In this document: piece by piece, positions 6,798-44,995 of the stretch
Layout of the letters: every line of letters starts with the position of its first letter
Numbering within the stretch: the first letter of the stretch is position 1
NCBI GenBank assembly: GCA_964591515.1
Contig: CAZQBW010000001.1
Coordinates: 36,316-100,315, forward strand
Direction of reading: 5' to 3'
DNA: 64,000 nucleotides
DNA from: an uncultured Clostridia bacterium
Lineage (GTDB): Bacteria; Acidobacteriota; Blastocatellia; UBA7656; JADIYM01
The notes under the pieces: model-generated
The model's database searches: none
What the model was told of the DNA's origin: nothing
Seen by the model: only the letters and a program-made list of their open reading frames with translations
Position numbers and translations under genes: made by a program

Positions 6798-6900
6798 GGC
6801 GTTGCCGTACAGAGAACACAGAGGCACGGAGAGCACAGAGAAATCTGTTCATCAGGACTCTGTGTTCCCCGTGCCTCTGTGCTCTCTGTACGGCAACGCC
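6798..6900. repeat. CACAGAG-family palindromic intergenic element (about 103 bp, 32-bp arms with 31/32 complementarity)
   Basis: ggcgttgccgtacagagaacacagaggcacgg ... ccgtgcctctgtgctctctgtacggcaacgcc, read directly in sequence. Sits in a divergent promoter region. Confidence 0.6.
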
Positions 6901-6998
6901 TCCTCAGTCTCAGTCGGCGAGACACTCGACTTGAGGTTCCGGCGTCGCAACCATAGAATTGCCCCACCTCCCATTACTTCGAAGCCAGAGGGTTACCA

Positions 6999-9125
6999 AT
7001 GATCCGGATCCACCGTTCGTTGCCGTCCGCCGTCCTGCTGTGCCTCCTGCTCGCCAACGTCGTGTTCGGGTCTTCGGCGCTCGTTCGAAAGGACCAGCAG
7101 TCGGCCCCGGCGCTCGCCGTCGTCACGATCGACAAGATCGGGTACGAGCGTTGGTCCGCGTTGACGTCGAGCCCGGCTCTCGCGTGGTGGGTCGAGGTCG
7201 ACACGCACCTGCTTGTTGCAGGCGATCGGGCGGCGCTGTCAGCGCTTCTCGGCGGTCGCTTCGTTTTCCGATTCCTCGACGGCAGTCCGTCGACGGAGGG
7301 TCTCTACTTCACGAATCGATTCCCGGCGAACGAGATCGAGTCAGTTGGCGCGACCATCCTCGTCTCGGATGGCGGATCCAGCGTCATCCGGGCCACCCCT
7401 ACGCAAGTTGCCTCGCTCGAGGATCTCCACGCGGGCGACGACGAGGACGGCTGCCGCGGGCATGCGACGATCCGGCCATTCCAGCCGAACATGCAGCTCT
7501 CGCATCAGGCAGCCAACAGCAACGTTCCGACCTCGGCCCAGTTCAATGCGGCTATTCAGGGGCTCGTGGATCAGGTCAATGGATCGCGCTGGTTCGCTGA
7601 CGATCAGTCGCTCGCGACTTTCAACCGATGGACGCGTGGCGGGTCGATCATCAACGCACGGGAATGGCTCATCACGCAATTCCAGTCGATGCCTGGCCTG
7701 ACGGTCACGACGCAGTCGTTCACCGTACCGGCGAGCGGAGGAAATCCCGCCGTGACGGCCTACAACGTCATTGCGACGTTGCCCGGCACGACGCGCCCCA
7801 ACGACTGGTACATCGTCGGTGCGCACTATGACGCGATCTCCAACGACGATGGACACGCCACGGCAAGGGGAGCGGAAGACAACGGTTCGGGCTCTACCGG
7901 AGTTCTCGAGCTTGCCCGCATCTTCACCGCAAACCCTCCCGACGCCACGATGAAGTTCATCTGTTATGCGGGGGAGGAGCAGGGTCTGTACGGCTCGATC
8001 GCGCACGCCCAGTCGCTGGTGACATCGGGCGACAACGCGAAAGTCCGCGGGATGTTCAACCTCGACATGATCGGGTACACCGGCGACACGGACCTGGACT
8101 GCCGGCTTGAAACGCGGGCAATCGGACAGGGCCTGATGGATGCTTGCTCGGCCGCGGCGGCGCAGTACACGACGCTGCGAATCGTCACGTCTCTGAACCC
8201 ATGCTGTTCTGATCACCAGCCTTACCTGGACCGTTCGATGCCGGCAATTCTCGCCATCGAGAACGACTATGGAACGTATCCCGGCTATCACCAGTCTTCG
8301 GATCTATCGAACAACCTGACGATCGAAATGGCCGTGCAGATCCTCAAGATGTACGTGGCGACGATCGCGCAAATGGTCGGCACGAGTCCCGCCGGTCTCG
8401 GCCTCGAGACAGCAGGCGTCTATTCCCAATCAACGGGCACATTTTTCCTCAGGAACTCTAATTCGCCGGGCGGCGCCGACGCTGCCTTCCAGTTCGGTGC
8501 GGCTGCTGCTGGCTTCACGCCGCTGGCAGGCGACTGGAACGGTGATGGCGTCGACACGATTGGCCTCTACCGTGGAAACACGTCGACGTTCTTCCTTAGG
8601 AACTCGAACACGCCCGGAGCTGCCGACGTGGTTGTCTCGTTCGGCGCCGGTGGTGCCGGGTACCTGCCGCTCGTCGGCGACTGGGACGGCAACGGCACTG
8701 ACACCGTCGGGTTGTATCAGCCCTCAACCGGAGCGTTCTTCCTTCGCAACTCGAACACTCCGGGTGGCGCCGACGTCGTCTTCACATACGGACCCGCGAA
8801 CGCGACGCCGGTCGTCGGAGACTGGGACGGCAGCGGTACCACCACGATCGGGATCTTCATTGGTTCGACCTCGACCTGGTTCCTCCGCAACTCGAATACG
8901 CCGGGCGGTGCCGACATCGTGTTCGGGTACGGACCTGCCGGTTCTGGCTGGCTTCCGGTTGTCGGAGACTGGAACAACGACAACGCCCAGACTGTCGGAC
9001 TTTATGATCCGGTCGGTGGCAACTGGTTCCTCCGAGACTCGAACAGCGCGGGGCCAGGCACGAACGTCTTCGGATACGGTCCGACGGGCCTGATCCCGGT
9101 TCGCGGCGACTGGGACGGGCTGTAA
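6999..9125 (+). CDS. Secreted M28-family Zn aminopeptidase with C-terminal array of six 44-aa FG-GAP-like repeats
   Basis: Signal peptide. M28 motifs (HYDAISNDDGHATARGAEDNGSGSTGVLELARIF, CYAGEEQGLYGS, FNLDMIGY). C-terminal repeats FFLRNSNTPGGADVVF.YGP...GDWDGDG.DT.GLY, same type as in 3766..6675. Confidence 0.8.
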   Translation: MIRIHRSLPSAVLLCLLLANVVFGSSALVRKDQQSAPALAVVTIDKIGYERWSALTSSPALAWWVEVDTHLLVAGDRAALSALLGGRFVFRFLDGSPSTEGLYFTNRFPANEIESVGATILVSDGGSSVIRATPTQVASLEDLHAGDDEDGCRGHATIRPFQPNMQLSHQAANSNVPTSAQFNAAIQGLVDQVNGSRWFADDQSLATFNRWTRGGSIINAREWLITQFQSMPGLTVTTQSFTVPASGGNPAVTAYNVIATLPGTTRPNDWYIVGAHYDAISNDDGHATARGAEDNGSGSTGVLELARIFTANPPDATMKFICYAGEEQGLYGSIAHAQSLVTSGDNAKVRGMFNLDMIGYTGDTDLDCRLETRAIGQGLMDACSAAAAQYTTLRIVTSLNPCCSDHQPYLDRSMPAILAIENDYGTYPGYHQSSDLSNNLTIEMAVQILKMYVATIAQMVGTSPAGLGLETAGVYSQSTGTFFLRNSNSPGGADAAFQFGAAAAGFTPLAGDWNGDGVDTIGLYRGNTSTFFLRNSNTPGAADVVVSFGAGGAGYLPLVGDWDGNGTDTVGLYQPSTGAFFLRNSNTPGGADVVFTYGPANATPVVGDWDGSGTTTIGIFIGSTSTWFLRNSNTPGGADIVFGYGPAGSGWLPVVGDWNNDNAQTVGLYDPVGGNWFLRDSNSAGPGTNVFGYGPTGLIPVRGDWDGL

Positions 9126-9128
9126 TCC

Positions 9129-9998
9129 GTGAATCGGAGGGCGTTTGTAGCCGCGACAATAGCGGTGTCAGGCGCCCTCCTGCTTTCCGCTTGCACGAAC
9201 CCTGCTCCGACGTCTCCCGCGAGCCGCCACGAACTGACCGGACGTATCGTATCGATCGACGCGTCGTCCGGTCGTGTCACCGTCGCGCACAGGGCAATTC
9301 CGGGGTTCATGGATGCAATGACGATGGAGATGGCCGTCGAACCTCCGTCGTCGGTGGCGACGCTAATTCCCGGCGACAGGATTCGCGCGACTCTCGTCAT
9401 CGACGACGAAAAGACCTGGATCGAGAACGTCGAAAGGCTTGAAGGCGAGGCCGCCGGGTTCGACGTCGATGACGCCAGGGATCCCGATCTCGGCGCACCG
9501 GTCCCGCCATTCGAGCTCACTGATCAGAACGGTCAGCGATTCGGCTGGGAGCGGTTCCGAGGCCAGGCCGTGCTCGTGTCGTTCATCTACACTCGATGCC
9601 CGCTTCCGGATTACTGCGCCCGTATGACGGCGAACTTCGACGAGATCGCGCGCACGCTCGAATCCCGGCCGTCCGGTCGCCGGACCAGGTGGGCACTTCT
9701 GAGCATATCGATCGACCCGGATCACGACTCGCCGGCCGTGCTTCGGGACTACGCAGCGCTTCAGGCGCCGACCGCCGGCAACTTCGAGCGGTGGACCTTC
9801 GCGACTGGCTCTCCGGACGAGGTCAGAGCCGTTGCCCGGTTCTTCGGCCTGTCTTATGAAACCCAGTCCGGACAGATCGTCCACTCGCTGCGGACTGTTC
9901 TGGTCGGTCCTGACGGGCGGGTCGCGAAGCTCTTCCGCGGGAATACCTGGACGACCGACGAGGCAATCCGGGCTCTCGAGTCTGCTGACGCACGCTGA
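9129..9998 (+). CDS. SCO1/SenC-family lipoprotein (thioredoxin-like CxxxC copper chaperone) with N-terminal metal-binding-like extension
   Basis: Lipobox LLSAC. SCO1 motif FIYTRCPLPDYC with downstream His. Confidence 0.7.
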   Translation: MNRRAFVAATIAVSGALLLSACTNPAPTSPASRHELTGRIVSIDASSGRVTVAHRAIPGFMDAMTMEMAVEPPSSVATLIPGDRIRATLVIDDEKTWIENVERLEGEAAGFDVDDARDPDLGAPVPPFELTDQNGQRFGWERFRGQAVLVSFIYTRCPLPDYCARMTANFDEIARTLESRPSGRRTRWALLSISIDPDHDSPAVLRDYAALQAPTAGNFERWTFATGSPDEVRAVARFFGLSYETQSGQIVHSLRTVLVGPDGRVAKLFRGNTWTTDEAIRALESADAR

Positions 9999-10038
9999 CG
10001 ATCACACCTCGGTGATCGCCAGCGTTCATCCGTTGACG

Positions 10039-11577
10039 CTACCGCTGAAAGAGGAATTCCGGTGACGATGCTCCGTCCGGGTTGAGAACACGGACCGAGA
10101 CCGTCTCACCGGCGGGAATCGCCGTCGCCCAGGCGTTTTTCGACAGAGCCTTGTGGCGTGACTTCACCTTCGTATCGCGAACCAGCTCGCCGTTCACCAT
10201 GATCAGACTGCCGGCGCGGATGTCATCGCCTTCGACGATGAGCTTCGAGCCCTGGACTCGAATACCGGAAACGACCGGCGTCGAAGGTTCGCGGTGCTCG
10301 GCATCGATGGTCAGACCGAGGAAGCCGATGCACATCTCGTCCGTAGTCTTCTCGCCCCACGAGACGTCGACCGGCGGAATCGTCGGCTGATTGTGGTTCA
10401 GCTCAGAATTGTCGTACCGGGCCGTGAGCTCGACCCTCGTCGCACCTGGAATTGCCAGAGGCTGCCGGTATTTGTACGAGCCTTGCCAGTGGAAGTCCCA
10501 GTTGTCGATGAAGATGAGACACTGGCGCTCGCCCGTGACGAGGTTCTGGGCCGTCAGCTGCATCTCGCGTCCGAGCAGGTGCATATGCGGCGAGATGTAC
10601 TCAACCTTGACGTTCACCAAGGGCGGAAACGTGAACGACGCCGTAACCGGATAGTCACGCGCGTTGGCGGGAATCGTGAAGTTCTGATTGATAACCGGAA
10701 GGATGATCACGTCCTGGTATACCGGCGACCTCGCGAACTTGAGCGCGATCGACGTCGTGTCGACCTCATCCTGACCGTTCGGCTTGTAATGCACCTGAGC
10801 GACGATGCGAGCGCCCTTCGGCACGAGATAGCCAGTTCCATCACGGAGCACCTGTGGCGGAGCACCCGGTGCCCATCCGCCAAGCGTTCCTACAGTGGCG
10901 AAGCCCGGACCGCCGAAACTCGTGTAGCCGGGACCCGGATCCTGCTGATCGAGAGTAACGGAGATTCCGGTTGCGTCGATGTAGAGGATGACGTGGTGCA
11001 CGATCTTCCGATTGCTCGGGCTCACCTCGACGGCCGTGATGAATCGGTCCGCATCGAAGTTCGTCGGTATCGTGAAGCAGCGATAGATGTCGGCCGTAGC
11101 CGATGCCGGAACCCGGTAACCGCTCGGGACCGTCTGAAGTTCGATGTCAGGCACGCCGAGTTTCCACCCGTTGTCGAATACGAGCGACTCGGGCAGATCG
11201 ACTGGATTGCCCTCGGGAGCACCAGCATCCGCCCACTCCGCGAGCGTCGCGATTTCTTCATCCGTCAGGCCACGCTTGTTGGCGAAGTCGCCGCATCCGT
11301 CGACCGGCTTCCAGGGCGGCATCGCGCGAGATTGCGTCTCGGTCCGGATCGCTTCGGCCCACGGCGCGGCATCCTCGTACGTCATCAGACTGAAAGGAGC
11401 GATGTCACCCGGGTGGTGGCACGTCTGGCAGTTCTGCTGGAAGATCCGCACGACCTGATTCGAGAACGTTGCCGGCTCTGCAGGTGCTGCAGCCTGCGAA
11501 GTGGAGCGATCGGAAACGGCATACGCGCCCGCGGCGAGCGCCAACGCGAACGTGAGCAGACCGAGCGAACGTTTCAT
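10039..11577 (-). CDS. Secreted cytochrome c (PSCyt-like CQTCHH) fused to a copper type-II monooxygenase-like (PHM/DBH-like) domain
   Basis: Start placed at internal MKRSLGLLTFALALAAGAYA signal peptide. CxxCH plus MPPW motif. Motifs HHVILY and SPHMHLLGREM resemble Cu-monooxygenase His clusters. Confidence 0.6.
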   Translation of the reverse strand: MKRSLGLLTFALALAAGAYAVSDRSTSQAAAPAEPATFSNQVVRIFQQNCQTCHHPGDIAPFSLMTYEDAAPWAEAIRTETQSRAMPPWKPVDGCGDFANKRGLTDEEIATLAEWADAGAPEGNPVDLPESLVFDNGWKLGVPDIELQTVPSGYRVPASATADIYRCFTIPTNFDADRFITAVEVSPSNRKIVHHVILYIDATGISVTLDQQDPGPGYTSFGGPGFATVGTLGGWAPGAPPQVLRDGTGYLVPKGARIVAQVHYKPNGQDEVDTTSIALKFARSPVYQDVIILPVINQNFTIPANARDYPVTASFTFPPLVNVKVEYISPHMHLLGREMQLTAQNLVTGERQCLIFIDNWDFHWQGSYKYRQPLAIPGATRVELTARYDNSELNHNQPTIPPVDVSWGEKTTDEMCIGFLGLTIDAEHREPSTPVVSGIRVQGSKLIVEGDDIRAGSLIMVNGELVRDTKVKSRHKALSKNAWATAIPAGETVSVRVLNPDGASSPEFLFQR

Positions 11578-11817
11578 TACGAAAACCCTGTATCGGCGTG
11601 GGATGAGCGCGCGAACCGCGGCGCCCGAACTATACTCCGGACCCGACTCCTGGCTCAACGCCCGGGCCACCCCAATCCGATTTGTCTGGTGAATGCGTAG
11701 ACGGGTCGTTCAACCGACTGAGAACGACCCTGCAACTTCGGAATCTTCATGAGGAACTCCTGTCGCCGGTCGTGACTCAATCGCGTCCTCACCGCGAATG
11801 GAGGCGTCACGCAGGTC

Positions 11818-12015
11818 ATGAACGCGTTCTTCCGTGGGACGTCGCCCACCGTGTATGTCGACAATGCGACCGACAAGCGCTACTTCGAGACCCAGAACTA
11901 TTTCGAGTCCAGGCTCCGGCCGGGAGATCCGGTGAGCTCGCGCATCCACGGAACGCCGGGGTACCCGGTCACGATCACCGCCGGCTTGACGTTCCGGCTT
12001 TTCGCCAATAACTGA
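11818..12015 (+). pseudogene. Probable remnant of the C-terminus of a TonB-dependent outer-membrane receptor
   Basis: Translation VYVDNATDKRYFETQNYFESRLRPGDPVSSRIHGTPGYPVTITAGLTFRLF matches the TBDR C-terminal beta-barrel consensus. No upstream in-frame body. Confidence 0.4.
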
Positions 12016-12156
12016 CGAAGGCTATACTTCGGCCGCCCCAACGCTCTCGATCCAGACATTCAATTCACGCACTGCGAACGCGGCTCGGTGTCTCGCGACC
12101 CGACGCCGCGGTTTGCACGTTGAGGTTGGTCCATTGGGAATCCGCCGAGGTCGTTA

Positions 12157-13290
12157 ATGCAGCCAGAGCAGCCGTCGAGTCCGTCCGGCAAGGTGCCCGC
12201 GACGCTCCAGAAGGAGGTCCGTGCAAAACTAGCATCGCTCAACATCAAGCTCACGCTTGCGGCAGAGGAGCTCAAGAAGGAGACGAATCCGGACCGCATC
12301 CGGGAGTTACGAGACCTCTTGTACGAGCTGAAGGCCGAAGCGCAGACGGCAGTCGAAAAGTACCGATGGGCGCAGAAGCTCTATGCGGAGGACTCAGGCG
12401 GAGCGGGGTCTGCAACTGAAGCCGACAACTCCGTCGACGCCGCTTTCGATGGAGTCCTGGTTTTCGGCGATCTCGACCTGTTGTCGCCTCCGCCCCAGGA
12501 TCTCATCAGCGCTGCAGCCGGAAAGTCGACTGACCCGTTGAAACGGCGTGAGACTGACATCGACGACGACGTGGCTGTTGTCTTCGACATCGAGGCAGTA
12601 CAGGACCAGCCGGGTGCGGCCGCCAGGGCATTCGACGACCTCGACGCCTCGGCAGACGTGTTCGATTCGCTGACCTATTCAATCGAGCTCGACGCACCGG
12701 TCGAGGAGGCCGGTGGCGCTCGATCCTCCGTGGCGGGTCGCGGCGGTCGCATCGGCCAGGCTCTTGCGTATGCCGTGTCCGCGTCCCAGGCAGCGGGTGT
12801 TGCGCTGGCAGCGCCGTTGGCGGCAGCATCGCTTGCGATCGAGGGCGGTGCGGACGAGAACGCGACAATCGCGGCGGCGCTCCACGACGTCTGCGAAGGA
12901 CCGGGTGGCGGAGAGCGGCAGCAGGAAGTCATTGACGAGTTCGGGCCTGCCGTTGGCGGCCTGCTCGAGTGGTGCGGGTGGATGAAGTCGATCGATCCGT
13001 GGGAACAGCGCGACCGCGCCTGGTTCACACACTTGCAAACCGCGCCTCCCGATGCGTTCCTCGTCTCGATCTGTTACCGGATCGCAACGTTGTCGGCGAT
13101 CGAGCGTGCGCGTCGCGCGCTCGGCGTCGAGGCGCTTGGCGAATCGGACAAACACCGCGAGCGGTTCTTCTGGAGCCAGCGCGCAATGCTCAAGGCCTAC
13201 AAGTCGAAGGCTCGTGGTCCGCTCGTCGACGAATGGCAGCGTCTCGTCGACGAGCTCGAGACCGGATCTGCCGGGAAGCCCGCCGTTTAA
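12157..13290 (+). CDS. Hypothetical protein: coiled-coil N-terminus plus C-terminal HD-like phosphohydrolase domain
   Basis: ALHDVCEG (HD-like) and surrounding helical region. Weak. Confidence 0.45.
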   Translation: MQPEQPSSPSGKVPATLQKEVRAKLASLNIKLTLAAEELKKETNPDRIRELRDLLYELKAEAQTAVEKYRWAQKLYAEDSGGAGSATEADNSVDAAFDGVLVFGDLDLLSPPPQDLISAAAGKSTDPLKRRETDIDDDVAVVFDIEAVQDQPGAAARAFDDLDASADVFDSLTYSIELDAPVEEAGGARSSVAGRGGRIGQALAYAVSASQAAGVALAAPLAAASLAIEGGADENATIAAALHDVCEGPGGGERQQEVIDEFGPAVGGLLEWCGWMKSIDPWEQRDRAWFTHLQTAPPDAFLVSICYRIATLSAIERARRALGVEALGESDKHRERFFWSQRAMLKAYKSKARGPLVDEWQRLVDELETGSAGKPAV

Positions 13291-13351
13291 TGGTCAGAAC
13301 ATGGGTCAGGTCCTGATCGGAACCGCGAGCGACCGGGTGGATGGGGCAGAA

Positions 13352-13514
13352 GGCGTTGCCGTACAGTGTTCACAGAGGCACAGAGCACGCAGCGAGACAA
13401 TCATCAGAACTCAGAGTTCTCGGTGACTCCGTGCTCTCCGGACGGCGACGCCTTCTGCAGAGGTGTGCTGAAACGCCAGAGAGCACAGAGCCTATGACGA
13501 CTCTGTGCTCTCTG
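13352..13514. repeat. CACAGAG-family palindromic element (degenerate about 100-bp copy plus a perfect 14-bp-stem hairpin cagagagcacagag/ctctgtgctctctg)
   Basis: Read in sequence. Lies between convergent genes, so may act as a bidirectional terminator. Confidence 0.55.
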
Positions 13515-13554
13515 TGAGCGGAGCGTGCCGCTGTCTGAAGCGCCTTGCCTCGAC

Positions 13555-23478: not shown

Positions 23479-23571
23479 GGCGTCCCCTTGTCTCTGTGAC
23501 TCTGTGTCTCAGTGCCTCTGTGTGCGAAGCGTCAGAAGAAAGCTGCGCATACAGAGAGCACAGAGGCACAG
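23479..23571. repeat. CACAGAG-family palindromic element
   Basis: tgactctgtgtctcagtgcctctgtg ... cacagaggcacagagtca. Confidence 0.55.
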
Positions 23572-23603
23572 AGTCAATTTTCGCGTGATCGAGAACCTTC
23601 TCA

Positions 23604-24317: not shown

Positions 24318-24442
24318 CTATCTGATCTGTGCCATCTGTTTCAGTCTGTGAGATCTGTGGACCGTCTTGACAACCCCGCGCGTCGGCAGTGATGCTGACC
24401 GGTCCGCGGCAGCGGCAATTCAATCGGAGCAATCGTCACCTT

Positions 24443-26147: not shown

Positions 26148-26630
26148 ATGCCCGGTTTCGCACGCGCCGACGCCGAATCGATCGCCGATATTGAGCAGTT
26201 TCTTTGCAGGGCGACCGGGGAGCCGGTCGCCCTCGGTACAGTGTGGATTGCGGACGGCCTGCTCGGACGCACCGTCGCAAGGGTCGCGCGAGCCCGGGCA
26301 ATCACGTTCGGGTCGCTGATCTTCTTCGCCGAAGGGCCGGATCGACCTCGTGCGGAACCTGAGGTTCAGACGTCACTTGAACGATTCGAGAGCCTGCTTG
26401 TCCACGAATGCGTGCATGTTTGGCAGTACCGGCGGGAAGGTTGGATGTTTTTCCTAAGACAATACTTGAAATCCTATTTCTCAGGTATTTGGGTGCGAGG
26501 ATCGATGAGTCGCCTGGCTCGCCACGCCGCGTATGTCGCGATCCCTCTGGAGCAGGAAGCGTTCCGACTCGAGTTGTCCTGGAGCGAAGCGAGGTCGAGC
26601 GGGCGGAGGGGCAGTCGACGGGACGGCTGA
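26148..26630 (+). CDS. Small DUF4157-like protein with HExxH (HECVHVWQY) motif
   Basis: ITFGSLIFFAEG ... LLVHECVHVWQY resembles the DUF4157 metallopeptidase-like signature. Good RBS GGGAGGAAGG. Confidence 0.5.
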   Translation: MPGFARADAESIADIEQFLCRATGEPVALGTVWIADGLLGRTVARVARARAITFGSLIFFAEGPDRPRAEPEVQTSLERFESLLVHECVHVWQYRREGWMFFLRQYLKSYFSGIWVRGSMSRLARHAAYVAIPLEQEAFRLELSWSEARSSGRRGSRRDG

Positions 26631-26821: not shown

Positions 26822-26948
26822 CTGACCGCCGGTCACAATCTCCGGTGCTTTCAAGGCCAGGGGTCAGCCGTCGCGATGCGAATTGGCCGTGACTGCAGAC
26901 GTGACCGTCGGTCAGTCGGCGCGCCGACTTTGTGCTGACTGCCGGTCA
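26822..26948. promoter_or_regulatory. Three copies of the 13-bp palindrome TGAC(C/T)G(C/T)CGGTCA in an ORF-free region; operator-like
   Basis: tgaccgccggtca (26822), tgaccgtcggtca (26902), tgactgccggtca (26936). Confidence 0.35.
26914..26929. repeat. AGTCGGCGCGCCGACT perfect 16-bp palindrome (variant of the GTCGGCGCGCCGAC family)
   Basis: Read in sequence. Confidence 0.7.
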
Positions 26949-27501
26949 GCTTGGACCGGTAGCTCGTATTCGCACAGTGTCAGACGAACAATCCGCCAGA
27001 CCGAACCCGGAGCGAAGCGACGGGCCGGCGATCCAATTGCGTTCAGTTCGGGGAGATCGATCCATGCCGGGGCCGCGACGACTTTCAACTGTCGGATTGT
27101 CAGGCTGGCCGGTCCCAAAGCCGCTACCCGCACGAATTCTTCTTGGCGTCGGCGCGGGCCGCCACTGAAAAGGCGCCAGCCCCGTCGCTACTGCCCGAAG
27201 ATCCAGCCCTTGAACCCGCGACCGACGCGGCCGCGTAACTCGTCTGATCGCAAGCACTTAGCGAACAGGCATCTCATCAGCCGCGGCCGCCCCGCCGTCG
27301 CCTCGCCGCGACGTAACATCTCTAAATACAGCAATTTAGCGTGAACGCATACCTGTGGTTGGGACGGCGTGAAGATACGCGCTGACTGTGCCATAACGTT
27401 CATTATCAGACGCGCTTTATCTCGTGTTCCGCTCGTGATACTCCGGTCAGTCGCCCGTCTACAGCCATGAACTCTGACATCCGATCAGGAGACGCCTCTG
27501 G

Positions 27502-31367: not shown

Positions 31368-31395
31368 GAGTCTTCCAGTCTTCTCTCCGTTCCTT

Positions 31396-31470
31396 CGTGA
31401 CTCTGTGGCTCAGTGTGCGGAGCTCTTCGGGAATCCTGAAATCGCTTCGCACACAGAGCCAAAGAGTCGC
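31396..31470. repeat. CACAGAG-family palindromic element
   Basis: gtgactctgtggctcagtgtgcg ... cgcacacagagccaaagagtc. Confidence 0.5.
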
Positions 31471-31490
31471 CGAGATACGAAGGAGCAGTT

Positions 31491-33161: not shown

Positions 33162-33295
33162 CTCGCGTGCGGCTCGGGCGGCGTTCGAGGCGTTTTTCGC
33201 AGACACGGCAATCGCTCGCGACGCCGAGTCGATTTCAATAAGACTCGGCGCCGCGAGCGACAGCACGCGAACTCAGCGTTGACGTCGCCGAGGTT

Positions 33296-35717: not shown

Positions 35718-35780
35718 GCCGGCAACTTGCTCATTGGGCGAGCCGAACTACGGTCGGACGAGAACCCAGGTCGTGCGAAC

Positions 35781-37427: not shown

Positions 37428-40232
37428 TTACGTGGCCTCCTCGGACACTCGGCTTCGCGGGAGCACGAGCGTGAACGTGGCTCCTTTCCCGAGCGTGCTA
37501 ACCGCATCGAGACGGCCACCCAGACGCGAGACGAGGCTCCTGGAGATCGACAATCCGAGGCCCGTTCCTCGCCCCGGCTGCTTGGTAGTGAAGAACGGAT
37601 CGAAAATCCGCTCGAGATCCACGGCCGAAATGCCGGGCCCCGTGTCCTTGACGATTACCCGCGCCCCACGCGCCAGATGGCGAATCTCGATGGAGAGTCG
37701 TCCTCGCGGTCTCGACTCGATGGCATCCAGTCCGTTAGCGATGAGGTTGATCAAGACCTGTGAGACCAGGTCGGGATCCGTATGGAGCGGCATCGCAGTT
37801 CCGGACTCCCGGAGCCGAACCCGCTCGGTATTCCGCTCGCGAGCCACGACGGCAATGGCTCCGGACGCGATGCTCGCAATGTCGCACTCCTGGATCCTCG
37901 GGCGCGTAGGGGCTGCAAAATCCAGCAGATCTCTCGTGATGCGCTTGCAGCGAAACGACTGTTCAACGATAGCGTCTATCCGTTCGCGGATCGACGGCCA
38001 CCGGTCCGAGTTGCGCAACTCCTCGAGCGACGAAAGCTGACGGTCGAGCGACTGCGCCGAACCGGCGATCGTAGCCAAGGGCGTATTTATCTCGTGCGCC
38101 ACTCCGGTTGCGAGCTGCCCTATCGAGGCCATCTTGGAAGACTGGGCGAGGTTCTCGGCGATGGTCCTTTCGTTCGTCACATCCCGAATGGACAGGATGA
38201 ACGAAGGATTCGACGCTGTCTCGAGACGCGACACTGAAAGGGCAAGCCAGCGTCCGAGCGCCGCGTCCTCCACTTCGATCTGGACCGGCCTCCGGCCCGA
38301 ATCGACCCTGGACAAGGCCTCGACGATCGCCGTTCCGGTTTCTTCCGAAACCAGACTAGTAAGGGGCTGACCGACCATCGCGGACGGCTTCGATCGAACC
38401 ATTGCGGCGAATGCGCGATTCGATCGGATCACGAAACTGGATGCGTCAACGACCACGACACCGTCGGGCAACGAGTCGAAAGCGCCTTCCCAGACCCGCT
38501 TGGCATCCGACACGGCCCCCAGCAGCGACGACGCACCGATCGCGAGTCCGACGTGCACGGCGACGGCGTCGAGCAACGCTCTCGTGTCGGGGTCGACCCT
38601 GGCCGTGCGCAAGTGGACCGCAAGAACACCGTCTACCCCATGCCGAGCCGAGAAGAACGACATCGAGAAGGAAGAATCGGCGTCGGTCGGCTCGCCATCC
38701 AGCGCCAGCCGGGCCCGAGCATCGAGACCGGACGATGCCGGGTCGGCTGAGACAATAGCGCCCTCGCCCGTCAGCTTCCAGCACCACGACTGGTAGCGAT
38801 CCGGCTCCGGCCCCCGGCACAGGACCGACACTTCGTCCGATTCCGTTGCGGTCATCAGAAGGTCCGCAACACTAGAAAGCGCCTCCTCACGCGAGGCGGC
38901 CGAGTGAACGGCCACGGCGAGGCGGGCAACCGTGGATTCGTGCTCGACTTGCCTGCGCGCATTCTCGTGAATCTCCCAATGACCAATGGAAAGGCCTACT
39001 TGCGAGGCTATCGAGACGGCGAGCTCGACGTCTCCCTCCGTCCAGGACCGTGCACGATCCGATTGAAGGACGGCAAGCACACCACGAGGCTCGCGACGGA
39101 CAGCGATTGGGGCGACTATGGCCGATGCGGCGCCCGATCGACCGAGCGGGCCGGAATCGGAGCTCGTCAACATGGCACTCGATTGCTCGATCACGACGGG
39201 CTGCAGTGAACGCAGGGCCTCGCTCGTCGCCGGCAGCAGGTCGAACGTCGCCGCAAGCCCTTTCGAGAATTCCTGCGACGCGCGCACGTGCTCGTGCGCG
39301 ATCGTGACATCGCCCATCGGATCGACGAACGCGATCTGGCAGCAGCTCGCACCTAGAAGGCGACCCGTTTCGGCAACTGCCGTCTCGAGGACCGTCTCGA
39401 GGTCGAAGGACTGGTGCAGGAGGCTCGCCGTCTGTTGCACGAGCCGCGAGCGACGGGCGACCTCCTCCGCCTGGGCAGCCTGCCGTCTGAGTTCCGCTTC
39501 TGCCTTGCGGCGCAAGGTAGCGTCCGAGAGCCGAATTATGGCGTCGCACGTCGTGAATCCGCCCGCAATCATTTCCGCTTCAACGAGATGGCGGCCGAGT
39601 TCGAACTCGAAACTCTCGCGAAACGGGGCGTCGATGATCGAGCCCATCCAGGACTGATATTGCTGAAACACCTGGCGAGCGCCCGGTCCGGCGGCAACGT
39701 CTATAAAGAAGTTCCGGCCGATGAGTCCGCTAGGAAACAGCAATTCGATCGGCAGGAAGTGGTTGTGGTCGAGGATTCGGCCGCTCGTGTCGACCTCCAC
39801 CACGCCGAGTCCGAGCGCATCGAGAAGCGTCCGGCGCTCACGTCCAGAGTTTGCAAGGGTTCGCGCGAGCAGCCGGACTCTCGACACGTCCTCTAGAACG
39901 ATCAGGCAGGCAGTGCAGCCGCTAAGGTCGAGGCGATGTGCTCGGGCACGAACTTCAGCCGATGTCCCGTCGATGCGTTCAAAGTACAGGTCGACCGGCT
40001 CGTCGGAGGTCTGCGCCAGCCAGACTGCCCGCTCGACCGCGCGCTCACCGTCCAGGGTGAACAGCGACTCGAGCGCGACCCCGACGAGCGAGCCTCCGTA
40101 GAGGACTTCAGCATGATCATTGGCAGCGACGACACGCCAGCTTACGTCGTCGGCGACCACGAACGGCACCGGAACGATCGTGGCGAGCGCTTCGCCGATC
40201 GAGGCCATCACGGAGACGCCGAGCGCGCTCAT
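37428..40232 (-). CDS. Multidomain sensor histidine kinase (multiple GAF/PAS, HisKA, HATPase_c)
   Basis: HEINTPLATI (H-box), GTGLGLSISRSLV (G2 box). 934 aa. Directly abuts the regulator gene. Confidence 0.85.
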   Translation of the reverse strand: MSALGVSVMASIGEALATIVPVPFVVADDVSWRVVAANDHAEVLYGGSLVGVALESLFTLDGERAVERAVWLAQTSDEPVDLYFERIDGTSAEVRARAHRLDLSGCTACLIVLEDVSRVRLLARTLANSGRERRTLLDALGLGVVEVDTSGRILDHNHFLPIELLFPSGLIGRNFFIDVAAGPGARQVFQQYQSWMGSIIDAPFRESFEFELGRHLVEAEMIAGGFTTCDAIIRLSDATLRRKAEAELRRQAAQAEEVARRSRLVQQTASLLHQSFDLETVLETAVAETGRLLGASCCQIAFVDPMGDVTIAHEHVRASQEFSKGLAATFDLLPATSEALRSLQPVVIEQSSAMLTSSDSGPLGRSGAASAIVAPIAVRREPRGVLAVLQSDRARSWTEGDVELAVSIASQVGLSIGHWEIHENARRQVEHESTVARLAVAVHSAASREEALSSVADLLMTATESDEVSVLCRGPEPDRYQSWCWKLTGEGAIVSADPASSGLDARARLALDGEPTDADSSFSMSFFSARHGVDGVLAVHLRTARVDPDTRALLDAVAVHVGLAIGASSLLGAVSDAKRVWEGAFDSLPDGVVVVDASSFVIRSNRAFAAMVRSKPSAMVGQPLTSLVSEETGTAIVEALSRVDSGRRPVQIEVEDAALGRWLALSVSRLETASNPSFILSIRDVTNERTIAENLAQSSKMASIGQLATGVAHEINTPLATIAGSAQSLDRQLSSLEELRNSDRWPSIRERIDAIVEQSFRCKRITRDLLDFAAPTRPRIQECDIASIASGAIAVVARERNTERVRLRESGTAMPLHTDPDLVSQVLINLIANGLDAIESRPRGRLSIEIRHLARGARVIVKDTGPGISAVDLERIFDPFFTTKQPGRGTGLGLSISRSLVSRLGGRLDAVSTLGKGATFTLVLPRSRVSEEAT

Positions 40233-40238
40233 CGGAGG

Positions 40239-41120
40239 CTAAGCTCGAGGATGGAACTTGCGGTACGCCTCGCGCAGCCGTTCGTTCGTGACGTGGGTGT
40301 AGATCTGGGTCGTGGAGATGTCGCTGTGGCCGAGCATCATCTGGACCGACCGCAAATCTGCACCGTGTTCGAGCAGGTGCGTTGCGAATGTATGACGGAG
40401 CATGTGAGGTGTCACGCGGCCGAGCTTGGCCCGCTCGCCATATTCGACAAGGCGCTTCCAGTAGATCTGCCGCGTAACGGGCGTACCTCGCGACGTCACG
40501 AAGAGGCTGTCGCCATTTCTGTCTCCGGCCATGCGCCTTCGAGCTGGCAGGTAACGGCGGATGGCCTCGATGGCACCACTCCCGACCGGAACACGGCGTT
40601 CCTTCGAGCCCTTCCCCAGACACGTGACGAGTCCGGCGTCGATGTCGACGTCCGAAAGCTTCAACGTGACCATCTCAGACACACGCAGTCCCGACGAATA
40701 CAGGAGCTCGGTCATCGCCCGATCGCGAAGCCCCTCGTCAGTCGTGACATCGGGCTCTTCCATCAATTGGTCGACCTCTTCCCGGGTGAGGAATTTCGGC
40801 AACGTCTGCCAGCTGCGGGGAGTCTCGATATTCACCGTCGGATCGTGATGAATATGTCCGTCGAGGATGAGAAACTTGTAGAGGTTTCGGACTGTAACCA
40901 TTGTGCGCGCACAGGATTGGGGCTCCAGTCCCGATTCCCTCAAGTGACGGATGAAGGAAAGCAGATCGGCGCGCTCGATTGTCAGGATCTCACGCCCGCA
41001 CGACGCAGCATAGCTCACGAGCTTTCGAAGGTCTCGCTCGTAAGCCTCCATCGTATTTGACGAAAGTCCCTTCTCGACGCGAAGGTATCGGAGGAATTCC
41101 TGGCAGAGGTCGCGCGGCAT
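40239..41120 (-). CDS. xerD: Tyrosine site-specific recombinase XerD
   Basis: C-terminus LRHTFATHLLEHGADLRSVQMMLGHSDISTTQIYTHV...HPRA closely resembles XerD. Start at internal ATG. Confidence 0.8.
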   Translation of the reverse strand: MPRDLCQEFLRYLRVEKGLSSNTMEAYERDLRKLVSYAASCGREILTIERADLLSFIRHLRESGLEPQSCARTMVTVRNLYKFLILDGHIHHDPTVNIETPRSWQTLPKFLTREEVDQLMEEPDVTTDEGLRDRAMTELLYSSGLRVSEMVTLKLSDVDIDAGLVTCLGKGSKERRVPVGSGAIEAIRRYLPARRRMAGDRNGDSLFVTSRGTPVTRQIYWKRLVEYGERAKLGRVTPHMLRHTFATHLLEHGADLRSVQMMLGHSDISTTQIYTHVTNERLREAYRKFHPRA

Positions 41121-41249
41121 CGCCTCGGGTGGCTCCTTGTCTCGGTCCGGAAACGGCGTTAGTCTTGCGACGCGTCGCGCCGGTGAATCTGACCGGCGCC
41201 AAACCATTGCGTTATCAGACGATATGTTCGTTTCGGGGAGACGTCAAGA

Positions 41250-42296
41250 ATGAAATTGAGCGAGGTTGCTGCCGCGCTGGGTCTCGAGATGGGAGGCGCC
41301 AGCGAACCGGAGACCGAGATCACATCGCTAGGCAGCCTGATCGACGCGAAAGCTGGACAATTGACCTACATCGCGGAAGCCAAGCACGCACAGGGACTTG
41401 CGACAACGGGAGCATCGGCTGCAATCTGCCGGACCGAACATGCCGAGGGCGCGCGGATTCCCTGCCTCTTGAGCAAACACCCGGGGGCGGACTTTGCAAG
41501 GGCGAGTCGACTTCTGCATCCGAGGCGGCGAATGGCGGCCGGAGTGCACGACACGGCCGTCGTTGCCGAGTCGGCTACGATCGGGCACGGCGTCCACATC
41601 GGTCCGTTCGCTGTGATCGGCGAAGGCGTCATTGTTGGAGACGGCAGCGAGATCCATGCACACTCGGTCCTCTATGACGGAGTCCGCGTCGGCCTCGATA
41701 CGGTTATCTACGGCGGCTGTGTCATCAGAGAAGGCTCGACCATTGGTGACCGCTGCATCCTGCAGCCGGCCGTCGTTCTCGGAAGCGACGGTTTCGGTTT
41801 CGCGCGCGATGGCGACGGACACTACGAGAAGATCGAGCAACTCGGCGTTGTGGTCGTCGAGGACGACGTCGAAATTGGCGCCGCAACCACTGTCGACCGG
41901 GCCACTTTCGGCGAGACGCGAATCCGCCGCGGTGCCAAGATCGACAACCTCGTCCAGATCGGCCACAACGTGGTCGTCGGAGAAGACACGATTCTCTGCG
42001 CACAGGTCGGCCTTGCCGGATCGACGATCGTCGGTCGCGGTGTGACGCTCGCGGGACAGGTCGGAGTGGCAGGACATTGCGAGATTGGCGACGGCGTCAT
42101 AGCGACGGCACAGACCGGCATTCCCAACTCGGTCGAGGCGGGCAAAGTCGTTTCAGGCTACCCGGCTATCGAGAATCGGGCGTGGCTCAAGTCCTCGGCT
42201 GTCTTCAACAAACTGCCGGAGCTGCAGAAGGCGGTGCGAAGACTCGAAAGGGGGCTCGCTGATCGTGCCGGAGACGACGAATCCGGAGTTCTGTGA
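41250..42296 (+). CDS. lpxD: UDP-3-O-acylglucosamine N-acyltransferase
   Basis: Hexapeptide-repeat left-handed beta-helix. LpxD N-terminal region. Confidence 0.85.
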   Translation: MKLSEVAAALGLEMGGASEPETEITSLGSLIDAKAGQLTYIAEAKHAQGLATTGASAAICRTEHAEGARIPCLLSKHPGADFARASRLLHPRRRMAAGVHDTAVVAESATIGHGVHIGPFAVIGEGVIVGDGSEIHAHSVLYDGVRVGLDTVIYGGCVIREGSTIGDRCILQPAVVLGSDGFGFARDGDGHYEKIEQLGVVVVEDDVEIGAATTVDRATFGETRIRRGAKIDNLVQIGHNVVVGEDTILCAQVGLAGSTIVGRGVTLAGQVGVAGHCEIGDGVIATAQTGIPNSVEAGKVVSGYPAIENRAWLKSSAVFNKLPELQKAVRRLERGLADRAGDDESGVL

Positions 42297-42377
42297 TCTC
42301 TGTGTCTCTATGCTCTCTGTATGGCAACGCCTATGCCGTTGGCATACTGAGAGCACGGAGTCACGGAGACCACAGAG
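42291..42377. repeat. CACAGAG-family palindromic element (contains ctctctgtatggcaacgcc, near-identical to the end of the 6798..6900 copy)
   Basis: Read in sequence. Overlaps the lpxD stop. Lies between convergent genes. Confidence 0.55.
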
Positions 42378-42395
42378 CCGAGACGTTCTCGGTCC

Positions 42396-44873
42396 CTACT
42401 GCAATACGACCGGTGCGGTGAAGATGCCAGAGATGAAGACTCGAACAGCAACCGGCTTTGCTTGAAGGAGTTGCGGTAGTCGCGAGTCTTTGCCGACCAG
42501 TCGGCTGCTCGTTCCGTCCGTCCCGACAAAACGCGGCGGAGCTTTCACTGATCCGAGGGCAGTCTCGCCAACGAAGATCTCCCCACCCGTAGCCGGCAAG
42601 CGCAGTCCGTCGACCGTCAGCTTCTTGCCGCTCGTGGCGAACCTGGCGGATCCAAGAACTGGAGCAAACGGATCCAGCGCGTCCACGGCGGCTGACGATG
42701 CTGTCGCCATCGATTCGATTCCCTCTCCATCAACGAAATCGACCCGCACAGTAGCCGATGCGAGCATCAGGCCATTCACGATTGCTGGCGCGGCCGACTG
42801 ACCGAGCACGAAAGCTGACTTGGATCCCGTGGCCCAGTCGCCGTCCCCGTCAAGATCCACTCGGAGCACGGCGCCGATCGCATCGCGATCCGGCTGAGCA
42901 TCTGCCGCGTGTGCGTCTGCGTCGGAATCCGTTCGAGCTCGCAGACGAAGCGTCCCCGTTCCGGAGCGCGGATTCTGCATGATTCCGATCTCGCCAGACG
43001 ACGTCACGCCAAGATCAACGGTGCCGGAACCATCCCGATCCACCCATACCGCCGACGTCAGGTCCGCAGGCAGAGAGAAGCGCGCCGTCGCGTCGTCGAA
43101 TCCGTTCGCACCGCGATTGCGAAGCACGTGGATGCCGTCCTGCCCACCCTCGACGAGCAGGTCCGTATCGCCGTCGGCATCGTAATCCGCCGGCAATACT
43201 CGAGTTCCCCCCGCAAGCCCCCCGATCGCAAGCTCCGACGTAACGTCGAGAAAACGAAGTTCGCCTCCAACACCGGCGAGCACCAGATTCCCTGCCAGAC
43301 GCGTCGCAACGACGTCGAGCCATCCGTCTCCGGTCACGTCCGCCCACGCAACGGCCGACGCGGGAAAGCTCACGGCAGATCCGAACGCCGTCGACTCGTC
43401 AACCATTCTTCCTTCGGTGTAGCTATAGACTCGAAGTCCGGCTCCGGTCGCGACCAGCAGCCGCGGTCCCCCGGCAAGCCCCGTTACCGGCCCCGTTGGC
43501 GCGCTCCACGTCGACGAAGCATCGACGAAGCCGTCCGCCGTGTTCTTCAGTGCGAGCAGTCCCGTCGACCCGCCAGCCACGACATCGAGACGACCGTCCC
43601 GGTCGACGTCCATCCAGACGACCGCGCGCGGGTCCGCGAATCGGGGAAGAGATGTCGGCGCGCCGACACTGGTGAACGAACCGAGCCCATCGTTACGCCA
43701 GATGCTCGTCGCATTGACAGCGAGCACCGCGAGATCCGGAGTCCCGTCGCCATCGGCGTCGCCCCAGGCGAGCGCGCGAACATCGCCGGGAAGCGTCAAT
43801 CCAGAGGCCTCGGTCGATTCGGTGAACGTCCCGTCGGCCTCCTGCAGGTAGAGGAGGACGCCTCCTGCGCTGCGGCCAACCACGACGTCCTGACGGCCGT
43901 CGCCGTCGACATCGGCCCAGGCCTGTCGCTGAAAGTCGCCGCCGAGAGGCGCCTCCGCGATTGGCACCGCCGTGGACAGCCCAAGCGGCGCGATCGTGAG
44001 GTTAGACCGCGACTGATCGGTTCGCTCGGTACCACCAGTGTCCACTACAACGACCCGGATCCGGGCATCGGTCGTGGCGAGGGCCTCGGGAATGGTCCAC
44101 ACGAATGACCGTGCGGTCGCCGGCAGATTGTCTGCCAGGACGGACGGGTAATTCTCGCCGCCGTCCGTCGAGAGCAGAACACGGAAATAGGATGGCGTGG
44201 CAGAGTCGCCATCGGTTGCGCTCCAGCGAATGACTACGCGCTCACCCGATCCGAGCGGACTGCCAGTCGTCGGCGATTCGAGTCGGACGCGAACAAAGCG
44301 TGTTAATCCATCGATAGTTACGCTCGTTGTGTAAATGTAATCGTAGAAGTCCGTGTGGTCACCGTTGGCCGCATTTCCAGCTGCGTAGAACGTCACGGGT
44401 CCGAGGTCGGTCGATGGCGCTTTCCAGACCATTGACCAGGATACTTCTCCGCGTGATCCGTCATAGGTCCCAGTCAAGGTGTGCTGTGCGTAATACCGGC
44501 CAAGACGCTGCGAAGGCCCGAGTGCCGAGACCGAGAGCGTGCTCGACTGGAAGAAGCCCGCGGCGTGACCGAGTTCGTCGATGGCCGTGATCTGGAATCC
44601 CCACTTCTTGGCCAGCGGATCCGAGACCCTAACGGTCACTGGGTACGTCTGGCCGGGTGTGTACTGTGTCGGAAGTCCCTCGATCGCCACACGGCCGGGG
44701 CCGGAATCGAGTGGATAGGTCCGGTGGCACGTATTGCACGCCACCTCGCTGGGCGCACCGGTCCGCTCGAGAAAGGGTCCGGTCGACAGCGCTTCCACCG
44801 ACTCGGACGACGACATCAGTACGACCGCGGCTACCGCAAAGACGAGAAGGGCGAGTGACTTCAGTAGTTTCAT
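42396..44873 (-). CDS. Secreted FG-GAP/VCBS-repeat protein with N-terminal CxxCH motif (CNTCH)
   Basis: Signal peptide MKLLKSLALLVFAVAAVVL. Repeated D.DGDG..D motifs (DVDGDGRQDVVVG, GDADGDGTPDL, DVDRDGRLDVV, DVTGDGWLDVV, DYDADGDTDLL). Confidence 0.75.
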   Translation of the reverse strand: MKLLKSLALLVFAVAAVVLMSSSESVEALSTGPFLERTGAPSEVACNTCHRTYPLDSGPGRVAIEGLPTQYTPGQTYPVTVRVSDPLAKKWGFQITAIDELGHAAGFFQSSTLSVSALGPSQRLGRYYAQHTLTGTYDGSRGEVSWSMVWKAPSTDLGPVTFYAAGNAANGDHTDFYDYIYTTSVTIDGLTRFVRVRLESPTTGSPLGSGERVVIRWSATDGDSATPSYFRVLLSTDGGENYPSVLADNLPATARSFVWTIPEALATTDARIRVVVVDTGGTERTDQSRSNLTIAPLGLSTAVPIAEAPLGGDFQRQAWADVDGDGRQDVVVGRSAGGVLLYLQEADGTFTESTEASGLTLPGDVRALAWGDADGDGTPDLAVLAVNATSIWRNDGLGSFTSVGAPTSLPRFADPRAVVWMDVDRDGRLDVVAGGSTGLLALKNTADGFVDASSTWSAPTGPVTGLAGGPRLLVATGAGLRVYSYTEGRMVDESTAFGSAVSFPASAVAWADVTGDGWLDVVATRLAGNLVLAGVGGELRFLDVTSELAIGGLAGGTRVLPADYDADGDTDLLVEGGQDGIHVLRNRGANGFDDATARFSLPADLTSAVWVDRDGSGTVDLGVTSSGEIGIMQNPRSGTGTLRLRARTDSDADAHAADAQPDRDAIGAVLRVDLDGDGDWATGSKSAFVLGQSAAPAIVNGLMLASATVRVDFVDGEGIESMATASSAAVDALDPFAPVLGSARFATSGKKLTVDGLRLPATGGEIFVGETALGSVKAPPRFVGTDGTSSRLVGKDSRLPQLLQAKPVAVRVFISGIFTAPVVLQ

Positions 44874-44925
44874 GATCGCCGGGAATGGTACCACGACGCG
44901 TCGCGAACGAACCTCGGTGCTCAAG

Positions 44926-44995
44926 GGGACTCTGAGCTCTCTGTATGCCGACGGTAACTCCAGTGGGGTACTTAGAGCACCGAGACCCTGAGTCC
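44926..44995. repeat. Degenerate CACAGAG/CTCTGTA-type inverted repeat upstream of the 42396..44873 gene
   Basis: ggactctgagctctctgta ... tagagcaccgagaccctgagtcc. Confidence 0.35.

Follow-up and report, generated by a model that had tools for sequence, protein, structure and literature searches.

The 64,000-nucleotide stretch of contig CAZQBW010000001.1 analysed here (hereafter the window) is core chromosome of an uncultured soil member of the Acidobacteriota, class Blastocatellia, and carries between its genes a family of long hairpins built on the word CACAGAG and its complement CTCTGTG. The nearest named EtfA homologues come from Blastocatellia metagenome-assembled genomes (MAGs), and the genes of the window include plsX-fabD-acpP-fabF, etfBA, ETF-QO, pfk, lpxD, a XerC/D-type recombinase gene, parAB, miaB and recN; no tRNA or tmRNA was found in the window. 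An initial annotation had listed six such hairpins, at 6798, 13352, 23479, 31396, 42291 and 44926, as one family with shared ends, resembling repetitive extragenic palindromic (REP) sequences or MITEs (miniature inverted-repeat transposable elements), and direct reading of the sequence located all six at these positions. CACAGAG, counted on both strands of the window, occurs 21 times against 6.74 ± 2.56 expected, a number reached by none of the shuffled sequences, and 18 of the 21 occurrences fall within seven intergenic hairpins, the seventh being a mini-copy at 13477–13520 that had escaped the earlier list. Inverted-repeat and tandem-repeat scans recovered the same places, each arm being a short tandem array with a period of 8–9 nucleotides (nt).

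RNA folding confirmed that the long hairpins are real, six of the seven (the mini-hairpin included) being far more stable than shuffled sequences, with z scores from −5 to −15 over the well-folding hairpins. The most stable, at 6794–6904, folds with a free energy (ΔG) of −86.9 kcal/mol on the plus strand and −89.6 kcal/mol on the minus strand (z about −15), followed on the two strands (+/−) by 13346–13458 (−59/−55.6 kcal/mol), 42286–42382 (−59.5/−53.7 kcal/mol, z −10), 23479–23582 (−58.9/−47.8 kcal/mol), 31392–31478 (−52.9/−45.6 kcal/mol, z −8.6) and the mini-hairpin, folded as 13474–13524 (−29/−33 kcal/mol, z −4.9/−6.9). Since 44922–44998 folds no better than its shuffles (z −1.3/−0.5), we regard it as a decayed copy.

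Arm module and sub-families

The arms of these elements share one module, (CACRGAG plus one or two purines) repeated three to four times, as in ACAGAGAA-CACAGAGG-CACGGAGAG-CACAGAG. A short GC-rich clamp and an array of 3–4 units make up a half-element, and two inverted half-elements give a hairpin of 50–110 nt, the stem of which would, as RNA, consist of 7-bp helices punctuated by small purine–pyrimidine mismatches. This common module bears out the proposal of one family, but not the idea of common ends: three sub-families could be distinguished, and the GGCGTTGCCGTACAGAG...CTCTGTACGGCAACGCC ends that had been ascribed to every site were found literally only at 6798 and 13352. These two sites form sub-family A (6794–6904 and 13346–13458), which has a GC clamp at its base and reads as outer clamp AGAAGGCGTNGCCGTA, CACAGAG array, loop, CTCTGTG array and mirror clamp, at a uniform length of 109–112 nt. 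At 42291 and 44926 the clamp is central and the arrays stand in the opposite order (CTCTGTG...CACAGAG), defining sub-family B (42289–42380 and the decayed 44926–44995), in which the CTCTGTG array comes first and the tip clamp is TATGGCNACGCC-NNN-GCCGTNGGCATA. At 23479 and 31396 a different central clamp, TGTGCGAAGC/GCTTCGCACA, marks sub-family C (23488–23578 and 31396–31475), again with the CTCTGTG array first and with a tip of the form TGTGCGAAGC-loop-GCTTCGCACA. Because a palindrome is identical on both strands, the reversed order represents a different topology and not the other strand of sub-family A; the B/C topology is built from the same half-element, and a 20-nt stretch, TACAGAGAGCACAGAGGCAC, is identical in the arms of copy 1 (sub-family A) and copy 3 (sub-family C). 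The family is modular, one arm array being combined with three clamps and two topologies.

Copy 1 (6794–6904) is nearly perfect, with 43-nt arms that are 93% complementary and a covariance-model score of 107 bits; it consists of the clamp GGCGTTGCCGTA, four units (ACAGAGAA CACAGAGG CACGGAGAG CACAGAG), a 17-nt loop (..TTCATCAGGA..) and the mirror arm. It lies between divergent genes for a 969-aa protein (−) and an M28 peptidase (+), and a consensus scan predicted promoters on either side, at 6766–6738 (−) and 6931–6959 (+), so that copy 1 appears to lie between two putative outward promoters. Copy 2 (13346–13458) is a degenerate member of the same sub-family (arms 77% complementary, 100 bits) that keeps the 109-nt frame and has the loop motif ATCATCAGAAC; it stands between convergent genes for an HD-domain protein (+) and a multihaem cytochrome (−), directly after a half copy (13320–13345) of another palindromic family. 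Nearby, the mini-hairpin at 13477–13520 has two units per arm (AGAGAGCACAGAG/CTCTGTGCTCTCTGTG) and no clamp (24 bits, E 6e-4). In sub-family C, copy 3 (23488–23578) has four CTCTGTG units, TGTGCGAAGC..GCTGCGCA and then ACAGAGAG CACAGAGG CACAGAG, and fills the etfA–spoU intercistronic gap, starting 20 nt past the stop codon and ending 25 nt ahead of the next start. The degenerate copy 4 (31396–31475; GACTCTGTGGCTCAGTGTGCGGAGCTCTTCGGG...GCTTCGCACACAGAGCCAAAGAGTC), the centre of which matches that of an element in the related contig L143, lies between a 203-aa open reading frame (ORF) and the phosphofructokinase gene, both on the plus strand, 28 nt past the stop and 15 nt before the start. Sub-family B is represented by copy 5 (42289–42380), with four CTCTGTG-type units, TATGGCAACGCC-TAT-GCCGTTGGCATA and four CACRGAG units, between convergent lpxD (+) and the gene for an FG-GAP protein (−), its centre recurring in L111, L119, L124, L125 and L128, and by the decayed copy in a divergent promoter region (44926–44995; CTCTGAGCTCTCTGTATGCCGACGG...TACTTAGAGCACCGAGACCCTGAG). 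In copy 5 the first CTCTGTG-type unit (42289–42296) contains the stop codon of lpxD (TGA), so that the end of this reading frame is either provided by the element or overlapped by it.

The earlier view that most copies lie between convergent genes was overstated: two sites are convergent (13352 with the mini-hairpin at 13477, and 42291, together three of the seven hairpins), two are divergent (6798 and 44926) and two are intercistronic and co-directional (23479 and 31396), the gaps holding the latter two copies being too short for a promoter.

Recurrence and evidence for copying

Beyond the window, where seven copies occur per 64 kb, all of them intergenic, the family recurs as the dispersed, REP-like palindromic repeat that had been suspected: 22 further metagenome contigs and a Blastocatellia MAG share its clamp, length and loop motif. 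The contigs were recovered by a metagenome scan with GCCRTACAGAGARCACAGAG and derive mostly from one soil assembly (CXWL/CXWK), and the MAG, JADIYM01, carries several copies on one 484-kb contig (at five or more loci). The likeness extends far past the short CACAGAG word, as 14 non-orthologous sub-family A copies align over ~109 nt, within a frame of 109–112 nt, at 75% mean identity. The alignment shows an invariant clamp and two invariant first units, followed by looser distal ones, and the loops have the motif ATCAG in common; the ends are conserved and the centres variable, and one stem pair shows five compensatory changes. A covariance model built from the sub-family A copies recovered copies at 70–119 bits, and the same search found five contigs that end inside a copy. 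Many of the 22 metagenome contigs end within a copy. The protein encoded beside copy 2 is present on many soil-metagenome contigs, four of which (L001–L004) have their start inside copy 1, ~100 nt upstream of the gene for the peptidase. The elements account for breaks of this kind in assemblies of soil Acidobacteria.

Comparison with relatives revealed rapid turnover of individual sites. Copies 1 and 4 are absent from the syntenic sites of a relative at 72–86% protein identity (L145 in the case of copy 4), and at the site of copy 2 the 90% and 82% relatives carry only a different palindrome. The orthologue of copy 3 in the 93% relative (L143) has a nearly identical left arm and a rebuilt right arm, and the 86% relative has no such hairpin downstream of etfA. 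A second palindromic family (CAGAACCSGGAGCGTAGCGASSGGCC), a half copy of which precedes copy 2 in the window, has a member in contig L124 whose loop holds a sub-family A copy. No direct target-site duplication was found at the 18 copies examined, the flanks of which are complementary and extend the palindrome (GGAAGAAGG...CCTTCTTCC). The shared frame, clamp and loop, the nested copy, the contig breaks and the relatives without copies point to a family that multiplies by copying, with a fast turnover, and does so without the hallmark of DDE transposition.

The second palindromic family is free of arrays (CAGAACCSGGAGCGWAGCGASSGGCC plus mirror). In the window it occurs at 27003–27026 and 13320–13345, and elsewhere in L109 (2325–2416), L110 (1997–2170), L124 (4160–4470), L143 (12175–12269) and L144 (5095–5189); some of its copies host a CACAGAG element in their loop.

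The array across bacterial phyla

When a collection holding one genome for each species was scanned with ACAGAGARCACAGAGNCAC, at least 98 loci were returned, compared to ~35 chance matches estimated from the degeneracy of the pattern and the size of the collection; the next two counts refer to the 98 matches listed. Among these, 89 loci carry true arrays of at least three units and 62 carry two or more, while the same loci after shuffling yielded one array only. Arrays of 3–4 units with purine spacers and a TTTMAM flank were found in hairpins of at least 15 phyla, a recurrence that is solid as an observation. The groups represented are the Acidobacteriota (several classes), Bacteroidota, Planctomycetota, Verrucomicrobiota, Chlamydiota, Nitrospirota, Nitrospinota, Chloroflexota, Cyanobacteria, Gemmatimonadota, Armatimonadota, Omnitrophota, Myxococcota, Desulfobacterota, 'delta proteobacteria', Gamma- and Alphaproteobacteria and, within the Betaproteobacteria, Sulfuritalea, other Rhodocyclaceae, Propionivibrio, Ca. 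Desulfobacillus, Chitiniphilus and Janthinobacterium, as well as Clostridia-labelled MAGs. Because they include isolate and complete genomes, an assembly or adapter artefact was dropped. On plasmids, arrays were seen only in Nostoc/Anabaena, and the viral contigs returned just ten matches and were uninformative.

The arrays are narrowly defined in size and spacing. Across 233 arrays, 138 have three units and 88 have four (226 of 233 together), separated by spacers of 1 nt (257) or 2 nt (264) that are mostly purines (G, AA, AG, A), and there is a bias to TTT[AC]A[CA] in the five or six bases that precede the first unit. Inverted pairs number 67, of which 48 have the CACAGAG array first and 19 the CTCTGTG array, with a median distance of ~28 nt between the innermost units; single arrays without an inverted partner account for 77 of 131 elements. 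Arm-to-arm complementarity is 91% at heptamer positions and ~43% per nucleotide in the spacers, roughly what purine-only spacers would give, a contrast that is partly built into the detection rule (at most one mismatch per unit). Each lineage wraps the same array in an element of its own: in the Rhodocyclaceae this is a dispersed palindrome of ~185 nt, which contains the arrays, has conserved ends and a conserved loop of its own, and differs in unit number between paralogous copies.

The loci have little else in common. An all-against-all BLAST of 2,857 ORFs from the 98 loci found no shared neighbour, no family occurring at more than seven loci, and gene contexts are of all kinds, with no pattern of orientation relative to the genes. 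At gathering score, Rfam 15 gave no match in the window or in 18 array-bearing loci; at a permissive E-value only eukaryotic microRNA-precursor models matched the long hairpin, and these were set aside as chance matches. Literature searches yielded no description of CACAGAG arrays, the sole match being a Bacteroides fragilis primer that contains CTCTGTGTTCTCTGTG by chance. Whereas the family in the window is in itself fairly ordinary, its array, in hairpins of at least 15 phyla, appears undescribed.

Class of the elements and alternative origins

On balance, the elements are probably non-autonomous, REP/REPIN-like foldback repeats (REPIN, a hairpin-forming doublet of REP sequences) of a Blastocatellia lineage. 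The lack of target-site duplications, of a transposase in the window and of a U-tract places them with REP/REPIN sequences and not with classical MITEs or canonical terminators; the REP-like part of the original REP/MITE-like label was accordingly retained and the MITE part dropped, given the 18 copies without a duplication. Like the bacterial interspersed mosaic elements (BIMEs) of E. coli and the REPINs of Pseudomonas fluorescens (PMC3116915, PMC8266576), they are extragenic, multi-copy and lineage-specific inverted doublets of ~100 nt, conserved at their ends and variable at the centre, have half-elements joined head-to-head as well as tail-to-tail, leave no target duplication and occupy both convergent gaps and operons. 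The family is best described as one that works like a REPIN, with arms built of arrays, and not as a proven REPIN.

Several findings weigh against this assignment. A REP unit is a short imperfect palindrome with a GTAG-type head, whereas the half-element here consists of a clamp (GGCGTNGCC, with 3 self-pairing bp) and a direct array of CACRGAG units repeated every 8–9 nt; no GTAG-type head was found in it, and it is not a REP short palindrome. No transposase or Y1/RAYT protein (PF01797; RAYT, REP-associated tyrosine transposase) was detected among the 40 window proteins scanned, and no transposase or RAYT gene recurs near the 98 array-bearing loci listed. The insertion boundaries derive from diverged orthologues, no exact pair of empty and filled sites being available at near identity. 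Furthermore, the etfA–spoU gap of the 90% relative (L144, 1975–2082) carries a hairpin of the same architecture with units of a different word, CTTTGCG/CGCAAAG, around a centre that resembles that of copy 3 (GCGAATCTCTTC versus GCGAAGCTCTTC), a swap that resembles concerted evolution in place, or selection for a hairpin there, more than it does transposition. Finally, the sense strand folds better by 4–11 kcal/mol in the three co-directional CACAGAG copies of the lineage (3/3), but this advantage is gone across phyla (8/13, mean ~0) and in hairpins of other words, in a comparison confounded by mutation bias linked to transcription and by crude calling of genes.

Copies of the family arise and enter the DNA between genes, the loops of other palindromes included, and the lack of a target-site duplication fits a single-strand or hairpin-based mechanism acting in trans. 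The candidate mobilising enzyme would be a Y1/HUH protein of the RAYT/IS200 type, encoded outside the window. An autonomous insertion sequence with the same ends was seen neither in the window nor in the ~0.9 Mb of array-bearing loci, and the ORF list of L076, between two direct copies, held no transposase-sized ORF, although these ORFs were left unscanned against protein families. After insertion, copies decay from the loop outwards and exchange arms. Elements that are transcribed would form very stable stems, most likely intercistronic or 3′-end RNA hairpins, which might act as an exonuclease barrier or as a leaky, U-tract-independent attenuator; such a role as a stabilising or attenuating hairpin is plausible, and any effect on RNA would be a by-product or a domesticated use and not the reason for the spread of the family.

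The suggestion that the elements double as bidirectional terminators did not hold in the canonical sense. They share with intrinsic terminators a stable, GC-containing stem-loop at gene ends and, as palindromes, read the same on both strands, but their stems are 3–5 times longer, no T-run follows them, and some copies lie in co-directional gaps inside operons, at 11–28 nt from the genes beside them, or between divergent genes. A scan for a hairpin followed by a T-run called none of the elements, which have tails of the TTCT/TCC or GTTAA type, and such sites show no excess in the window over shuffled sequences (9 versus 12.7, 17 versus 14.2 and 6 versus 13.9). Long hairpins without a T-run, of CACAGAG and of other words, occupy five convergent junctions.

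An alternative that we consider unlikely is that the hairpins are functional modules evolved in place (terminators, attenuators or determinants of mRNA stability) and not mobile DNA. Arrays would then grow and homogenise by replication slippage of a 7–9-nt unit and the arms would be matched by template switching, and because template switching within a palindrome keeps its arms alike, each site would drift to a word of its own. The L144 hairpin, with site, architecture and a similar centre kept under a different word, is what this would produce, and comparable cases are the fabF–etfB gap of L146, which holds a hairpin of (AGTAGAC)n/(GTCTACT)n units (9036–9119), and the same architecture in GCGGATC (1036–1141) and CAGGAT (45609–45740) units in the window. 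The variable unit number of paralogous Rhodocyclaceae copies, the missing target-site duplications (18 copies) and transposase (window), and the lack of enrichment of canonical terminators in the window also agree with it. Precedents exist: the GGGAATC heptamer arrays of Xanthomonas, of which a genome holds ~185, mostly of four units, with 70–75 convergent pairs capable of forming stem-loops, have no known function, and polymerase slippage has been proposed for the over-representation of heptamers in bacteria (PMC4692102). Nostoc has GGGGAYT heptamer repeats and cyanobacteria have STRR repeats (PMC4692102), and the TAACTGA repeats of Beggiatoaceae, Cyanobacteria and Bacteroidetes are patchily distributed across phyla (PMC4679880). 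The CACRGAG arrays resemble those of Xanthomonas and Nostoc in being intergenic tandem copies of a 7-nt word, about four units long (here 3–4) and often in convergent pairs (here 67 inverted pairs from the 233 arrays), and in this respect can be read as inverted heptamer simple-sequence-repeat arrays, but they have spacers of 1–2 purines and hence a period of 8–9 and not 7, no G-quadruplex potential, and are embedded in dispersed elements with clamps, a defined length and conserved loops. What tells against an origin in place is that non-orthologous copies have a clamp, a 109-nt frame and a loop motif in common, that one copy is nested in another palindrome (L124), that contigs break at copies, that copies stand between divergent genes where no terminator is needed, and that nearly all of the 233 arrays stop at 3–4 units, unlike a free-running microsatellite.

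It is improbable, more so than an origin in place, that the arrays are binding sites for a factor reading CACRGAG every 8–9 nt, whether a DNA- or RNA-binding protein or RNA polymerase, the hairpin being nothing but two arrays in inverted orientation. The conserved word with variable spacers would be expected of such sites, but the contrast in complementarity is in part an outcome of the array detection rule. The near-constant unit number, the many unpaired single arrays (those of the Nostoc plasmid included), the word with its TTTMAM flank in at least 15 phyla and the preference for CACAGAG-first over CTCTGTG-first pairs also favour a reader of the array. Work with native elongating transcript sequencing (NET-seq) reportedly defined an elemental pause consensus of G-10/-11 ... 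T-3 G-2 Y-1 G+1, which CTCTGTG at a period of 8–9 presumably resembles. Hairpins of the same architecture made of other words do not fit that consensus; moreover, no neighbouring gene family is common to the 98 loci listed, contexts and orientations relative to genes are patternless, and copy 1, going by the predicted promoters, is apparently not part of either transcription unit.

A very improbable explanation is that the elements are classical MITEs, which derive by deletion from a DDE insertion sequence and are moved by its transposase through their terminal inverted repeats: the elements share with Correia/NEMIS, Nezha and RUP a small size (50–190 nt), non-coding sequence, terminal inverted repeats and dispersed intergenic copies, and the Rhodocyclaceae have a 185-nt version with defined ends, but no direct target duplication was found at 18 copies, the whole element is one palindrome and not two ends around a core, and no parent or cognate insertion sequence was found in the window or in the ~0.9 Mb of array-bearing loci. 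CsrA GGA sites, sites for IHF in the loop, integron attC sites, CRP/FNR boxes and Type III restriction-modification sites (CAGAG) were considered and dropped as unsupported, and CRISPR was dropped because the period of the arrays falls far short of that of a CRISPR.

To return to the REP/REPIN-like reading, repeats of the REP type influence how operons are expressed, how genomes are rearranged and how well they assemble, and to our knowledge no known family of them extends beyond a species or genus. REP sequences are as a rule species-specific, whereas the identical CACAGAG word array recurs across most major bacterial phyla. We tentatively suggest, as a possibility we still hold to be doubtful, that the array module with its TTTMAM lead-in is a recognition element conserved across REP-like hairpins of at least 15 phyla. 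All array hairpins might be mobilised by one widely distributed enzyme. Alternatively, the word might be read by a machine common to all bacteria, RNA polymerase for instance, and lineages would then converge on this word; a third candidate explanation is convergence on a small set of words prone to slippage. If the suggestion is true, extragenic palindromic repeats would have their first pan-bacterial family, and a shared reader, if real, would provide a testable handle on why heptamer-type arrays are over-represented in bacterial intergenic DNA.

Hairpins of other words and further palindromes

Because hairpins of other words share the architecture, array hairpins are a general feature of this lineage, and orthologous sites swap words while the architecture stays. 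Some array hairpins may change their word in place or be replaced at favoured sites. The GCGGATC-unit hairpin at 1036–1141 (GCGGATCGG GCGGATTGA GTGGATCAG GCGGATC and mirror; ΔG −66 kcal/mol, z −7) lies between convergent genes, and a GATCCGC array also occurs at the Blastocatellia MAG locus L027 (338–373). The CAGGAT-type units at 45609–45740 (ACAGGATT GCAGGTAT .. GGGGATTA GCAGGATC), again between convergent genes, form a hairpin with 52-nt arms that are 83% complementary (ΔG −81 kcal/mol, z −10.6); ATCCTG arrays are found in Terriglobales (L034) and Pirellulales (L077) loci, and CGCAAAGG arrays in a MAG of the Roseiflexaceae (L018). Four ATCTGTG-like units form a single, unpaired array (24320–24360) that stands immediately upstream of a conserved −35-like box, CGTCTTGACAA, preceding the ETF-QO gene; it has a degenerate orthologue in L143 (9483–9520) and none in L144 or L145, both of which keep the TTGACAA box.

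An extreme case of the same architecture is the rumen Bacteroidales MAG RUG12118 (L023 and L089), in which nearly every intergenic gap in 8 kb has arrays, often as inverted pairs, of different words: TGTTGGG, CATGGAA/AATGTTC, TCATTCC, ATTTACA, ATTTCTC, ATTGTGAC/TGTCACA, CACGGAT, CTTGAAA and CACAGAG. Six AT-rich 'uncultured bacterium' MAG loci (L009, L012, L026, L033, L085 and L101) carry a conserved unpaired motif, CACAGAGAACACAGAGCCACAnAnCACnCCCAA, followed by an AT-rich stretch, which could represent a distinct promoter element or small RNA with no more than the word in common.

Two near-perfect plain palindromes of the window have neither unit arrays nor a T-run: one at 3670–3727 (24-nt arms, 96% complementary), downstream of the gene for the 969-aa protein, and one at 33212–33260 (19-nt arms, 95%) at the convergent junction of pfk and a phosphoribosyltransferase gene. 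Finally, a 15-bp palindrome, CTGACCGNCGGTCAG, is present in three copies with at most one mismatch within 130 bp (26822–26949) and also at 26627 and 27474, in a 1.4-kb non-coding stretch upstream of a gene for an FtsX-like permease, and a pair with two mismatches lies at 60832 and 60854 (60832–60868). At three mismatches its count across the window is not above chance and its clustering is, and the cluster looks like a putative operator cluster for a regulator.

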